This document shows positions 8,477 to 36,566 of a DNA stretch of 64,000 bases, in pieces. The notes under the pieces are model-generated. The model was not told where the DNA came from. It was given only the letters and a program-made list of their open reading frames with translations, and searched no databases. The translations under genes and the position numbers were made by a program. The number at the start of each line of letters is the position of its first letter. Position 1 is the stretch's first letter. The DNA is from Octopus vulgaris (lineage: Eukaryota): assembly GCA_951406725.2 (NCBI GenBank), contig OX597816.1:74772001-74836000 (forward strand), given 5' to 3'.

Positions 8477-10724
8477 GATGATGACGATGATGATGATGAT
8501 TTCATTTATTTGCCACAAGGGCGAAGGATGGAGGGTCAATACAGAGATAGACATAAAGTGTGTGGTTTACATATAATGAAATGATAAAAGAATACTAAGT
8601 ATACACGGTGTACACTGAAAAAGAAGGGACTTATGCATAGCGTAAAAAGGTAAAAAAAAAAAATGGCAGGGAGGATGATACAGATGTGGCCCTCCTGATA
8701 CAAGAAGGCCCCTAGGAATAAACGAGGAACCCCACTATTCGAGATTTCCCTGAAACTCTAGGAGCAACTCCCCTCTCCAATTCCTTGTCTCCGACTCACA
8801 GGTCTACACTTAGAGAGGTACCATCCACTCTTGCCATTTCCGCAACTTTCACCCACATTTCAATAAACTTACTCGAGGACAGCACTTCCCTCTCCACTCT
8901 CAGTATCCTTTTCAAGTGAAACTTGAAGAAGTCACTGAGAGCTCTACCAAAAAGGAATGTATTTGTCCTCATGCCTTTCAGCCTTGTCCACCAACCTCTT
9001 CCGCGACGGCCACCAGGCAAGGGAAAACTGCCTTGCCTGCCCGATTGAAGGAGGGCGGTGGTGCAATCATCCCTGCAGACTCGGCCGACAGAGGGATCCG
9101 TCCCACACGTGACAGCAGCTGCTCGACATAACCCCACAAGTCAGCAATGTCCGGACACTGAACGAGATCATGCAGAACGGTTTCGTTACTGTGCGCACCT
9201 CGGACAAGCCCGTCTGACAGCACATCCGTGCCTGAAGAGCTTGTCTCGAACCAGTAGCGCCTCCCGATAGCATTGCCAAGCCAAAGACATCTTGAAATTA
9301 TCCATAATAGTTCCCGACCGGAAAGTCCTCCGGAACAGACTAGCCACTTCGTTCTCATCGGCGCCCATAGTTTCCCCGACACTAATTCTCTATAAATTTC
9401 TAAAACGGAACGTCCACCGATCCCATTGTCTCACTGGTAAAGGGTTGTAAGCGCCTGACAACATTCAAGGTGCCCAGTCTCGGTCTTTTCTTTACCCAGG
9501 ACTGCAGCTCCGTCAAAAAGACGATCTGCGGAAAGACGAGCTTCACAAACGAAACCGTCCAGAAATCGTTGCAGGCGGCGTAATCTTAGCGCGTTTCTGC
9601 GCATTAGAAGCCACGGCAAACCTAATCTGCCACTAAGAGGATGCTGGCAACAGACTGACCGCCTGACCATTGGAACGCGTCCCTTTGACAAGAATAAGAG
9701 ACGCTCCAACCTGATCAAGCAGTAACCGGGACAAGGCACGACGGTCAGGCGATAAATGATAACGGAGGCATTCGCCACCTCTTCAGGTACAGCTTTATTT
9801 CAACTCATTTCTCGGTAAGACTGGTCACCACCTCGTCAAAGTTCTTACCAACCTGGAGGTCGAAACCAAACCAGACCCCGAATACTTTAACTGGTTCGTC
9901 GGTCCAGCGTCCGACGATGCCATCCGAAAGCTTCATTCTGCCTCTCCAGGAGCCCAACAGCAAACCAACCGATTTGTTGGCGTTGATTTTAGACCCTACG
10001 ACCGATTCATATTCCTTTAGGAAGGTGCCGACCGTCTCAACTTTGGAGGTATCCGACACCATGACGGTGACGTCCGCGTATGCTGACACTGCCCCTCCTT
10101 GTCCCAGTTCGAAAGGGATGCTCCTTAGCTGTTCCAACTTCTGAAACAGTGGCTCGTGTGCCAATACGCATAGAAGAAGCGACAGTGGACAGCCCTGACG
10201 GACCAAGCGTGCGATGCCAAACGGTTCTGATAGGTGGCCGTTTACTTTGACCACTGAACAAGTGCCGCTGTGCATTGCAGCGATCAAGCCTCTGAAAACG
10301 GATCCTAAACCGCCTACTTTCAGGACGGCTTCCAAGTAATGATGGTCGATCCTATCGAATGCTTTTCATTGATCCAAATGGATCAGAGCACCTCCGAAGC
10401 CAACTGTCGTCCCAGCCCTCTCTATGACGTATTGCATAAGGTGGGGGTTGTGGATAGACCTGCTCGGGATTACGTACATTTGTACTTCTCCGACCAGGCT
10501 ACCGACGACAAGCGCCAACCTTTTCGCTAACACCTTGGCTAAAATCCTAAACTCTGTGTTTAGCAGAGTTATGAGCCGAAAATTCTCTAGTACATTGTCG
10601 GCGTCCTTCCTCAGCAGTGTCACCACACCTCTGCTAACAGCACTAGGAATTCTCCTGTTCTGTTGCCAGTTGTAGTAGACGTCTGCCAAGAGATCGTCAA
10701 ACAAATCTGTCATGAATACATAGA
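8477..10724 (-). mobile_element. 5'-truncated, frameshifted L1/Tx1-clade LINE (ORF2 RT through C-terminal zinc region, 3'UTR, (ATC)n tail)
   Basis: ORF fragments 10366-10713, 9805-10335, 9431-9778, 8978-9382, 8796-9137 give FRLITLLNTEFRILAKVLAKRL, LDQ*KAFD, VRQGCPLS, SAYAD, GSKIN..KS, CPRC…ETVLHDLVQC; AATAAA then (ATC)n at 8477-8500. Confidence 0.9.
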
Positions 10725-11427
10725 TTTCGTAACATTTTCTTTATTAACCACAAAACTCACTAAAAAGATCGAGTATGATACAGGATAGCATAGGAGAAGG
10801 CAGTGTGGAATTGCATTAAACAGCGTGTAAACAAGACAAATAACAAAAATATAAAAATTCCTTAAAAGGACTACTCGTAGACACCCAACAAAACTTACCT
10901 TACCGGCTTATAAAAATTGCGTGGTGGTTAATGAAATCTTGGAAACATTTATTTCAAAAAAATGAAAAGAAAACCTCATCAAACTCGAAAGCTTTAGATT
11001 ATGGAACTGATAGATAAAAGCTGATATGAAAGTTAAACAAAAAGGACAAGGAATTAACTGATTAGTGATTAAGCACAATTCTCTGTTCTCTAATATGAGA
11101 GAGTAAAATTAAGGCTGCGAGCTGACAGAATCGTTACCGCACCGGGCAAAAGGCTTAGGTGCATTTCGTCCGTCTTTACGTCGTGTGATAAAATTCCGCC
11201 GAGGTTGACTTTGCCTTTCATCCCTTTCGGGGTCGATAAAATAAGTAGTAGTTAAGCACTAGGTCGATGTTATCGACTTACTCCCTCCCCTTTCGTAACA
11301 TTTTCTTTATTAACCACAAAACTCACTAAAAAGATCGAGTATGATACAGGATAGCATAGGAGAAGGCAGTGTGGAATTGCATTAAACAGCGTGTAAACAA
11401 GACAAATAACAAAAATATAAAAATTCC
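10725..11427. repeat. 137-bp identical direct repeat (10725-10861 and 11291-11427)
   Basis: Base-by-base identical; second copy interrupts the tail of a family-A SINE. Confidence 0.92.
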
Positions 11428-31404: not shown

Positions 31405-32206
31405 CTTTATTTGTTTTAGTCGCTTGACTGCGGCCATGCCGGGGCACCGCCTTTAGTCGAACAAATGGACCCCAGGGCTTATTCTTTTATAAGCCTGGTC
31501 TCTTTTGCCGAATCGCTTAGTTATGGGAATGCAAACACACCACCAGCGTCACTTGTCAAGCGATGGTGGCGGGAAAAACATAGATACACAAACATATATT
31601 CCTATATATGTATATATATATATATACCTATATATTCAAAATGTGACCGCGCGTGTACCGTTGGCGATTTTTTTTCCTCCGCCTTCCCTTCTCTGGATCT
31701 TTTCTTTTCCTATGTTTCTGACGAAGAGCTCTGCTCGAAACGTTAAACCCTCCTTCTTCCCTTCCTTCCTGAGCGTCCTAATACTATATTTGTTCCACGT
31801 CCTCGTGTTGTTGTGTTTTCTCTTTGTGTTTTCATGTTTGGATTAACTTTGTATATATATATATATATATATATAAATGGAGTTAACGCAGGTTTAAACA
31901 AGTATTTTTACTTTCGACACATGTTTCGAAAATTCCACTGATACTGTGAGATTTTTGCTGCCCTGGTAACTATTTATTTATTTTTCCGTGTTAATTGTTA
32001 ACAAGGTAAAAATACACTCATCTATTTATAATATATATATATATATATACGACGGGCTTAATTCAGTTCTCCGTCTACCAAATCCACTCAGAAGGTTTTG
32101 GTCGGTCCGAGGCTATAGTAGTAAACACTTTCCCAAGGGGCCACGCAGTGAGACTGAACTCGGAACCATGTGGTTGAGAAGCAAGCTTCTTACCACACAG
32201 CCACGT
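31405..32206 (-). mobile_element. SINE family B split at its internal (TA)n by inserted Penelope-like fragments
   Basis: 3' half 31405-31590 and 5' half 32050-32206 are colinear; 31640-32030 is foreign. Confidence 0.75.
31714..31748 (+). ncRNA. Ultra-minimal type I hammerhead-like motif in a Penelope-like fragment (31640-31850)
   Basis: gttt-CTGACGA-a-gagc(tct)gctc-GAAA-cg-TT-aaac: 4-bp stem I, 4-bp stem II, palindromic aacgtt in place of stem III. Confidence 0.5.
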
Positions 32207-32661
32207 CTAAAAGACAAAATTAGCTCAATCACTGACATCATTTATATTATTTTAATAGCTTTGTTAGTATGAAGAAAACTTGCAACAAGTTACATTATTT
32301 TTCGACTTCTTCAACAAAGCATAGACTTCATCGTATATTTGTCAAAATAGAGATTAGGGAATTACTAAATAAATGTAGAAAATTGAAGCCAATTTTTTTT
32401 TTAAATATATAAATCACTGAGGTTAATTACGAAAATAAAACGTCACTTAACATGAAAACCATTAATTTAATGTTAATATATTTTAAGTCAAAAATCTTGT
32501 AGGAAACACTTATATGGAGAAAACATTATTTCTGATGCCTAAACACGCCCTGCTGTTAATACATGAGATAACAGCAATTTATATACTTATACATACATAC
32601 ATACATACATACATACATACATACATACATACATACATACATACAGACATACATACATATG

Positions 32662-32696
<35 letters not shown>

Positions 32697-32736
32697 ACAC
32701 ACATATCTACTTACATATATACATAGATATATCTTT

Positions 32737-32798
<62 letters not shown>

Positions 32799-32815
32799 AT
32801 GTATACATACATGCG

Positions 32816-32893
<78 letters not shown>

Positions 32894-32896
32894 TAA

Positions 32897-32957
32897 TAAG
32901 GGCTTAGAAAGAAATTTTCTAGCCTGTAGGCTGAGAAAATTTCTTTCTAAGCCCTTA
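32897..32957. repeat. Near-perfect 61-bp hairpin beside (TA)n
   Basis: taagggcttagaaagaaattttct-agcctgtaggct-g-agaaaatttctttctaagccctta. Confidence 0.9.
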
Positions 32958-33048
32958 TAATTATACATATAATTTCACCTTAATCGGTTCCCTTTTATAT
33001 GCTGCCACTGATAAAACTTTTTAATACATATATAATATATATATATAT

Positions 33049-33959
<911 letters not shown>

Positions 33960-34111
33960 TTGTATACTGTCAACATAACGTGACAGTCCCGTAAGGGAAT
34001 TACACCACCGATTTTAGCCCTAGGAAGCATCGACGCTTCCTGTCGGCTTTGACACATTTTCTGTGTCCTTATACTTGCGAAGGGGAGGCAAGCACCCCCA
34101 CCAGCTAGGAT

Positions 34112-34170
34112 TCACTCCTGAGGACATGCATGTTTCTGGGTCTTAACCCGTCATCAGCCCAGGATAGTGA
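34112..34170 (-). ncRNA. Type I hammerhead ribozyme motif (minus-strand copy)
   Basis: tcac-ta-tcctggg CTGATGA c-gggt(taag)accc-a GAAA c-atgcat-g TC ctcagga-gtga; stem I 7+4 bp; C·A mismatch at the base of stem II. Confidence 0.7.
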
Positions 34171-34277
34171 GACCTGCTGGTTGAGATGTCTGTCTAGCCT
34201 TCGCTAGACTAGTGAATAGATTTCACTGTAATTATATATATTTGCGAAGGCTAGACAGACATCTCAACCAGCAGGTC

Positions 34278-34336
34278 TCACTATCCTGGGCTGATGACGG
34301 GTTAAGACCCAGAAACATGCATGTCCTCAGGTGTGA
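34278..34336 (+). ncRNA. Type I hammerhead ribozyme motif (plus-strand copy)
   Basis: CTGATGA 34291-34297, stem II gggt/accc, GAAA 34312-34315, palindromic stem III acatgcatgt, GUC triplet 34323-34325, stem I cctggg/ctcagg. Confidence 0.7.
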
Positions 34337-34529
34337 ATCCTAGCTGGTGAGGGTGCTTGCCTCCCCTTCGCAAGTATAAGGACACAGGAAATGTGTCAAA
34401 GCCGATAGGAAGCGTCGATGCTTCCTTGGGCTAAAATCGGTGGTGTAATTCCCTTACGGGACTGTCACGTTTTATGTTCTGAGTTCAAAATCCGCCGATG
34501 TATGTATCGGGCGGCTTTTAAGCTAGTAT

Positions 34530-35035
34530 ATATAGCTTTTAAGCAGCTGACCCCGAATGGGAAGATCTGCAAACAGATCTCTGACTCGTTTTGGAGAATT
34601 TGTTGCAATTGCTTCCTCCAGAGTCATATCCCAATGATTATCATATTCGTCGCAACAAATCATATAAAAAAATTCACCAAAAACAATCGCAATAATGAAA
34701 ACATAGAAATCCAAAATTTCAGGATTGCAGGTTCGGATTCGGCCCGGTATGTAGTTAATTTACTTATGGAGTTGGCCTAAAAATTGTTATCGTACAAAAA
34801 ATTTGTTGCAAAAAGTCACGTAAAAAAAATTGCCGAAAATAATCACAGTATTGAAAACTTCGGAGTCCAAAATTTCAGGATTGTTGGTCCGGATTCGGCC
34901 CAGAATGTTTTTAATTTACTCACGGAGTCAGCCTGATTCCAAAATGGTATGACATGTTGGGCTACGGCCTCTAGGAGTAAAGTTGAAATGTGTGACACAC
35001 TGATACACTGATATTCACATTTATTATATTATATT
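34530..35035. mobile_element. Probable Helitron-like non-autonomous element with internal ~70-bp direct repeat
   Basis: Repeat at 34708-34777 / 34865-34935; terminal gtgacacactg…cacatttattata motif recurs at 35455-35490 (ending tagat) and 36058-36100. Confidence 0.4.
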
Positions 35036-35037
35036 AA

Positions 35038-35439
35038 GGCGGCGAGCTGGCAGAAACGTTAGCGCGCCGGGCGAAATGCTCAGCGGTATTTCGTCTGCCG
35101 TTACGTTCTGAATTCAAATTCCGCCGAGGTCGACTTTGCCTTTCATCCTTTCGGGGTCGATTAAATAAGTACCAGTTACGCACTGGGATCGATATAATCG
35201 ACTTAATCCGTTTGTCTGTCTTTGTTTGTCCTCTCTGTGTTTAGCCCCTTGTGGGTAGTAAAGAAATAGGTATTTTGTCTGCCGTTAGGTTTTGAGTTCG
35301 TATTCCGCCGAGGTCGACTTTGCCTTTCATCTTTTTGGGGTTGATAAAATAAGTACCAGTTACGTACTGGAGTCGATGTAATTGACTTAAACCCCTTACC
35401 CAAAATTTGAGGCCTTGTGCTTCCAGTAGAAAGGAGTTA
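35038..35439 (+). mobile_element. SINE family A dimer, young
   Basis: ggcggcgagctggcagaaacgttagcgcgccgggcg head with CpGs intact; second unit restarts at gtattttgtctgccgtt. Confidence 0.92.
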
Positions 35440-35705
35440 TTAAAGTTGAAAAAGTGTGACACACTGCCATTCACATTTATTATACTAGATATGTTTAATT
35501 TAGAGGAAACTTTATTTCAATTAAAGCGTACGTAACTAGTACTTAATTAATCGATCCTGAAAGGATGAAACGCAAAGTCGACCTCGGCAGATTTTGAACT
35601 CAGAACGTAAAATAGACGAACAGGAAAAGTATATTGAATAAGAAAATGTTTGGGGTATTTTATAATGGAAAGAAGTAAAACACTAAGTTCTCAAGCCATC
35701 TTCTT

Positions 35706-35753
<48 letters not shown>

Positions 35754-35920
35754 CAATATAAATGTACCCGTATGAAATTGCTGAGCCTTTTCTATCACAT
35801 GCCCATTCTTTCTCTCTGTTTTGTCATTACTCCCACTGCCACCATCAACACTACTACTTTTAATAAAACATCATAAACTCTCCCTAAATTTCTTTGTCTC
35901 TCTTTCTCTTCCTCTCTTTT

Positions 35921-35957
<37 letters not shown>

Positions 35958-36566
35958 GTCTTCGCCACCGCCCTCACCGTCTCTACGCCTACTTTTACTT
36001 TCACCCTATCATGAGGAATAGTAGGAGTGTCATTGAATAGTGATAGAGGGGGTCTAAGTGTGACACACTGACACACAAATTAGTTTTCGCATTTACTATG
36101 ATGTATGTATGTATGTATACTAAAACACTTTCAAAACTTAGTCATAATATAAACAAACGTTCACCTAGCTCTACATCTATCACCGCATTTGAAGCTTATT
36201 TTATACTCAACTAGTTCAAGCCATATATTAAATCTAATGGGTACCACGGCTAACGAGTTAATAGCAAACTAATCGTGATTTTCACGACACATATCAAAAA
36301 CCCTCTTTCAACTCTTAAGTGGAAATGAATATTTTATATAAAATAACAAGATAATATAATGTTTTATCTCCCCAATGCAAACACCTTCAACGCAATCCTT
36401 CTCTACTTAGGGGAATCAACTATATATTATACATAGGTAGATGTTATCGCCATTATAAACGGCATCACTGTTACTCTTATTGCTCAATGATTTATGATTA
36501 ACAGCACGTACAGCTGCAAAAAAACATTAATCTCACTCTCTTCATTTCTCTCCTTATTCTTCGCTT

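Follow-up and report, generated by a model that had tools for sequence, protein, structure and literature searches.

The palindrome at positions 33977-34471 of a 64,000-nt stretch of Octopus vulgaris DNA (hereafter the window) very probably arose when a dispersed 353-nt hammerhead unit inserted once, in head-to-head form, likely through the reverse transcriptase (RT) and endonuclease of a Penelope-like element (PLE) acting in trans. The locus itself is ordinary, and the weight of this reading lies on a signature found at the level of the repeat family, in which the strand-inverted scar is routine and is carried by about a third of the sampled copies.

The inverted repeat consists of two 228-nt arms (33977-34204 and 34244-34471) that are 98% complementary, with exactly five mismatches, as in the earlier note on this DNA, which had described 228-bp arms with about five mismatches. 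The repeat stands as described, and its limits prove wider on the left, where the arm extends 24 nt more. This left arm (33953-34204, minus strand) aligns to unit positions 101-353 of the family, is 5'-truncated and stops at 33953, the family's normal 3' end (site 1), with (CT)n(TA)n next; the (TA)n(GA)n microsatellite at that end (33810-33952) is a typical family target, most 3' ends in the sample adjoining TA/CT repeats. The arms are indeed 39 nt apart, yet 37 bases of the supposed 39-bp spacer (34207-34243) are the 5' part of the right copy, which covers unit positions 64-329 on the plus strand (34207-34471), and the head-to-head junction is a gap of two bases between the aligned segments (34205-34206). 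Within 34211-34243, a small hairpin (34211-34227) and a TATA-like run (34229-34243) of the unit, both on the plus strand, form a possible promoter. With the left arm ending at site 1, the right arm is expected to end at a second fixed site of the family (site 2), of which it falls about 81 nt short, and a later deletion would be the simplest reading of this shortfall. At the position matching 34471, other family members carry on differently, while here the shortened end is joined to a fragment of an unrelated, apparently SINE-like abundant short repeat (34472-34498, plus strand), recognised by a 13-mer that occurs 10 times in the window with similar flanks. The window copy has one intact end only (site 1) and no scorable target duplication, and no third copy of the arm is present in the 64-kb window. 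Among 113 of the 126 window ORFs of at least 75 aa, Pfam recognised no host exon or gene, the matches being confined to RT fragments at 9808-10740 and one low-complexity match. Decayed L1/Tx1-type RT fragments (RVT_1 matches) lie on the minus strand at 8799-10740.

Each arm carries a type I hammerhead motif, all parts of which could be placed where they had first been noticed. In the right arm (34285-34331, plus strand; assigned from sequence and folding), a 6-bp stem I (34285-34290/34326-34331) encloses CUGAUGA (C3 at 34291), a 4-bp stem II (34299-34302/34307-34310), GAAA, a stem III made of the perfect palindrome ACAUGCAUGU (34315-34324) and a GUC site (C17 at 34325), with the cut predicted after C34325. 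The motif is free of mismatches between the arms, so that the left-arm hammerhead (34117-34163, minus strand, predicted cut after 34123) is its identical mirror. The core nucleotides C3-A9, G12-A14, A15.1-U16.1 and H17 and three helices are present, and the pair next to the core, G10.1-C11.1 in the consensus, is replaced by C34298·A34311. Hammerheads have been described in canonical and minimal forms, with G10.1-C11.1 conserved (PMC4209133), and activity is possible with a U-U mismatch at 10.1-11.1 (PMC3088659). The description of the motif as 'minimal' has to be dropped, since a 6-bp helix I, a 4-bp helix II and a palindromic helix III make it canonical metazoan type I. A covariance-model search had also been suggested; the Rfam scan of 32000-36500, up to E 5, gave only microsatellite and hairpin noise and no hammerhead match. 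A degenerate hammerhead pattern, by comparison, matched the genome 862 times vs 0 for its reversed control, and the motif is therefore not due to chance.

The C·A pair was flagged earlier as a caveat; it is present but represents the family state and not a lesion of the window copy. In the first 100 listed of the 862 matches, counted by hand, the base after CUGAUGA was C in 68, T in 25, A in 4 and G in 3, and the base before GAAA was A in 98 and T in 2. Across 85 distinct motifs, a script counted 70 with C·A and 12 with T-A at the base of stem II, where T probably arose by CpG decay. Stem III was perfectly palindromic in 69 of these 85 motifs, with seven sequences of 6-10 nt. Furthermore, pairing in stem I was examined in 33 motifs from both unit families, a set in which the search pattern fixed the core and part of stem II and left stems I and III free. 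Covariation between subfamilies was strong: all 6/6 stem I pairs varied on both sides, and 94% of the stem I cells were paired, compared with 77% when shuffled (0/500 shuffles reaching 94%) and 7-54% when slid; two covariation measures that count pairs or types showed no excess over shuffles. Core conservation was assessed in 18 segments recovered by a 3'-end pattern, the core not being used. Herein, the core was changed at 2/198 positions vs 186/3283 elsewhere (p 0.002, or 0.045 without polymorphic columns), so that it is more conserved than its flanks, the opposite of the outcome put forward beforehand as evidence against a ribozyme. A similar comparison on all segments (0.7% vs 6%) was discarded because of bias from core-based searches.

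Folding predictions are consistent with the earlier view that this is a type I hammerhead of the PLE and retrozyme kind that would act as a dimer. When two motifs were co-folded, the predicted lowest-energy structure was a double hammerhead (-42.7 vs -31.4 kcal/mol), and the predicted lowest-energy fold of the monomer was a misfold with a stem III pairing of about 0.01. In addition, the 353-nt circle was predicted to be strongly self-paired (z about -10 on 60 shuffles). In the preferred reading, the hammerhead is under selection in the copies that serve as sources, and cleavage would take place in a dimer formed through the palindromic stem III. Points to be set against that reading are the monomer misfold, the negative Rfam scan, the departure of C·A from G10.1-C11.1 and the failure of 8/9 predicted Xenopus retrozymes to cleave in vitro (bioRxiv 10.64898/2026.07.22.740005).

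The family was sampled by querying the 2.8-Gb genome with one arm, which returned 1795 first-look candidates, of which 40 were scored at 87-100% identity. The unit is a dispersed, ORF-less 353-nt hammerhead repeat (period measured in copy L003) whose copies are circularly permuted, the sequence passing through the 3' end into the start again. For the structural analysis, 120 loci, seen with 1.5 kb of flank, were collapsed to 87 insertions comprising 137 segments, a sample biased to the best or close matches, to exact patterns and to a long variant. Single segments accounted for 43 of the insertions, same-strand groups for 14 and head-to-head pairs for 30, and no insertion was tail-to-tail; the genome-wide arm search called for earlier thus found dispersed, mostly single-armed copies, with inversion in 30/87 and some same-strand groups. 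Segments longer than one turn were found in 20 of 137 cases, the longest (613 and 576 nt) each having one damaged core, and two intact tandem hammerheads were seen in none of the 87 family-A insertions, nor was a source locus seen among them. Head junctions fell at a different unit position in every palindrome, mostly with small overlaps or fillers, and no second copy sharing the window junction was found in the sample. A second unit family (B), of about 358 nt, is represented by L211, L215, L218, L225, L231 and L236; its stems differ, and the C·A pair, the hairpin and TA run before the hammerhead and the inverted copies are as in family A. One family-B locus has two hammerhead motifs 358 nt apart.

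An artefact of assembly, or an inverted duplication that arose once and locally, the latter having been one of three options offered at first, would fit two observations: no public contig crosses the head junction in the window, a weak point given that contigs are short at repeats, and the window arms, 97.9% alike and sharing three variants each found in at most two other copies, resemble each other more closely than they do any other copy. The five arm differences and the asymmetric centre speak against it, as do a further 29 palindromes in the sample, with their shared end rule and their target duplications, and with inversion recurring in 30/87 insertions this explanation is extremely improbable. 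Contigs from four sequencing runs contain family members, and one has another opposite-strand joint.

Another possibility is an element specialised for folding back, or a locus under selection for a ribozyme in either direction of transcription or for read-through dsRNA. Both hammerheads are intact and identical, and folding predicts that a read-through transcript of the palindrome would close into a hairpin of -487 kcal/mol and mask both completely, much as had been anticipated when the ribozyme was proposed to be buried in dsRNA. The family as a whole does not behave in this way: 57 of the 87 insertions are not inverted, the junction differs from palindrome to palindrome and is unique for the window copy in the sample, many palindrome arms are without a hammerhead, at a divergence of 1% per arm the cores would be expected to be intact, and a host exon was recognised in none of the 113 window ORFs. 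Such an origin is very unlikely, and the fold-back family once proposed gives way to a mostly single-armed one. As for the idea of an either-direction ribozyme, an intact, identical motif does lie on each strand, but nothing points to its use or selection. With one sense hammerhead per strand and neither arm a full unit, the window copy cannot release a monomer.

The preferred reading, insertion by PLE machinery, is carried by the ends of the copies. Unit 3' ends cluster at two sites separated by 57 nt, site 1 at positions 343-8 and site 2 at 53-66. Both ends lie at a fixed site in 22 of the 30 palindromes, and in 22/22 of these one arm ends at each site (p about 5e-7 at a best-case 50:50); in the remaining 8, the window copy included, one end is shortened or beyond the locus edge. 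By comparison, 32 of the 57 non-inverted insertions end at site 1, 19 at site 2 and 6 elsewhere. A target duplication of 12-14 nt surrounds the whole palindrome in 9/9 non-repeat targets among the 22, two more show 10-11 nt partly in a TA repeat, and 11 lie in microsatellites and are unscorable. Furthermore, of 238 polymorphic sites the two arms of a palindrome match at 218 (discord 8% vs 36% for random pairs), and rare variants are common to both arms at 4.6 times the rate for random pairs, but arm-arm identity exceeds that to the best outside copy in only 2/23 pairs, which limits a reading in which both derive from a single RNA molecule. At one locus (L012/L023, C3:97529938), a short-unit arm is paired with an arm that begins in the 3' end of a cassette described below, so that two RNAs or one composite RNA took part in a single insertion.

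These marks closely resemble those of PLEs. PLE insertions have been described as carrying an inverted pseudo-LTR (pLTR), a one-sided 31-bp tail and 8-10-bp duplications, with head-to-head copies usual and cargo mobilised in trans (PMC3846280), and the insertion structure is reported to be the same across clades (PMC8557442). A PLE protein, predicted to be dimeric, cuts and extends both strands without needing hammerhead cleavage, and for a lizard PLE two internal RT start sites bound the tail in vitro (PMC11167929). Like the endonuclease-positive PLEs portrayed in these papers, the unit shows head-to-head inversion, two fixed 3' ends and a one-sided tail (PMC3846280, PMC8557442, PMC11167929), together with duplication of the target flanking the insert as a whole, TA/AT-rich targets, partial tandems and a hammerhead near the 3' end. 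For PLEs these papers give tails of 30-40 nt and duplications of 8-10 nt, both of which the unit exceeds, with 57 nt and 12-14 nt respectively, and the strict pairing of one arm per site is absent from the passages on PLEs in the same three sources. In contrast to PLEs, the unit has no ORF, and the searches found no autonomous element that shares it.

The same genome provides a positive control. A GIY-YIG search revealed a young PLE family with intact 781-aa RVT_1+GIY-YIG frames, which we take to be Neptune-type. Its repeat has two ends 40 nt apart with targets in TA repeats, and its head-to-head copies (L174, L241, L254 and L263) carry one of each end in 4/4 cases. Clear sequence similarity between this PLE family and the hammerhead unit was looked for and not found. 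Copies of the family at L171:1244-2100 and L170:2842-5184 are very young, with the 781-aa RT+EN frame preceded by an upstream frame of up to 479 aa, and their repeat includes a motif resembling a hammerhead, with UUGAUAA as core and ACAUGU as palindrome.

That the unit is simply the pLTR of an autonomous PLE, its copies being very short 5'-truncated insertions with no independent retrozyme-like cycle, has to be weighed at this point. All the integration marks are those of PLE ends, and strong 5' truncation is expected to give short pLTR-only palindromes, as set out for PLEs (PMC8557442). The sequence upstream of the hammerhead, in contrast, was a previous unit turn or a gag-only cassette and never an RT ORF in the sampled copies, and past site 2 the unit is back at its own hammerhead within 90 nt. 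An RT plus GIY-YIG ORF beside the copies had been suggested as a check; no RT ORF linked to the unit was found in 148 unit loci with 1.5-kb flanks, and the Neptune-type protein matched five of these loci with short fragments, all apart from the unit. Comparison of the unit with 30 GIY-YIG loci likewise gave no clear match, a weak 31-nt match coming from another unit copy nearby. An autonomous source of this kind is accordingly unlikely; among the three options of the earlier note, an inverted PLE pLTR pair comes closest, except that no RT ORF adjoins the unit.

Insertion of the unit in trans could proceed as follows. A PLE protein, probably a dimer, would make staggered cuts, 12-14 nt apart, in the two strands of AT-rich DNA, and each DNA 3' end would prime cDNA internally on unit RNA, site 1 serving one end and site 2 the other. 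The two cDNAs would stop early, their free ends being joined mostly at 0-8-nt overlaps or through short fillers, so that their 5' ends meet mid-insert as a head-to-head palindrome; extension of only one end over a long distance would yield a single-armed insertion. The predicted cut site is spanned by 81 of the 137 segments, and no 5' ends lie at unit 178-189, which argues against a cleaved linear monomer as template. A pile of 5' ends at unit 121-140 stems from the long variant, which had been searched for. The template would instead be a ligated circle, to which we give slightly better than even chances, or an uncut more-than-unit transcript, for which they would fall slightly below even. 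The window copy would then be a dead end that later lost about 81 nt of its right arm, and its second ribozyme a by-product.

In other respects the unit recalls non-LTR retrozymes. Metazoan retrozymes are described as tandem repeats for which PLEs have been proposed as movers (PMC7229834), and the link between retrozymes and PLEs has been based on co-occurrence and trees, with monomers common (bioRxiv 10.64898/2026.07.22.740005). Of nine predicted Xenopus retrozymes in that study, one cleaved in vitro and eight did not, and tails, palindromes and head-to-head copies do not come up in its main text (bioRxiv 10.64898/2026.07.22.740005). The octopus unit resembles these elements in being non-coding, about 350 nt long and equipped with a canonical-size type I hammerhead (PMC7229834; bioRxiv 10.64898/2026.07.22.740005), its 353 nt fitting the retrozyme range of about 170-400 nt, and also in its highly self-paired predicted circle, permuted copies and coexistence with PLEs. 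Unlike tandem arrays, it is dispersed, extends under two turns and is inverted in a third of its copies; moreover, unlike the retrozymes covered there, the base of its stem II is C·A (or carries an extra C and an extra A), and its stem III palindromes are 6-10 nt long. In Schistosoma mansoni, opposite-strand hammerhead pairs 100-700 bp apart have been ascribed to truncated PLEs (PMC4209133). The two opposite-strand hammerheads of the octopus locus resemble these minimal-hammerhead pairs, but differ from the minimal motifs reported there in their 6-bp helix I, 4-bp helix II and the presence of helix III (PMC4209133). The unit appears to act like a non-LTR retrozyme that lacks the tandem arrangement, and is unlikely to be simply a pLTR. 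A literature search, to which subscription papers were mostly inaccessible, returned no description of the family, the C·A variant or the end-pairing rule.

In a 2-kb variant of the unit, a 1.7-kb cassette containing a CCHC-knuckle frame lies just upstream of stem I, flanked by direct repeats of about 21 nt. Cassette-bearing units (L061:8046-10000, L062 at C10:59763045-59765190, and L065-L094) belong to several hammerhead subfamilies and have spread with PLE-type ends, constituting a protein-coding form of the unit. Related cassettes number 13485 candidates in the genome. Gag-only CCHC cassettes of 1.7-1.9 kb, of mixed subfamilies and with frames of at most about 500 aa, stand head to tail in arrays of 5-10 or more at C4:70034000-70052000 (L115, L116, L125), C14:37734000-37754000 (L122, L129) and C4:27054000-27066500 (L117, L118); each arrayed cassette ends in AATAAA plus an A-run, and two arrays end in an APE+RT ORF2. 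Such arrays presumably resemble HeT-A stacking, but away from telomeres. The long variant with its CCHC ORF was considered as the autonomous element and rejected, since it has no RT and related cassette arrays end in APE+RT ORF2. The cassettes look like gag-only L1/Tx1-type inserts that were then carried by the unit.

A more speculative picture, which we regard as rather improbable in its entirety, would join these features. A circular RNA of retrozyme size would parasitise a PLE whose protein dimer would bind a single RNP with two fixed start sites and assign one of them to each cut DNA strand, and the stem III palindrome would join the RNA pair; the C·A hammerhead would be an undescribed active variant, and one lineage would have gained a gag-only L1/Tx1-type cassette to become a protein-coding circle, so that three retroelement systems ride one another.

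The enzyme that moves animal retrozymes has so far been a hypothesis from co-occurrence and trees, as presented in the available accounts (PMC7229834; bioRxiv 10.64898/2026.07.22.740005). An ORF-less hammerhead unit with the full PLE integration signature, together with a PLE of the same genome as positive control, offers evidence, at the level of integration, for a retrozyme-like unit being carried by PLE machinery. In addition, the 22/22 arm-end pairing yields a sharp prediction for the two in vitro start sites of the lizard PLE, and should hammerheads with the conserved C·A at the stem II base prove active, the patterns used to search for hammerheads would become broader.
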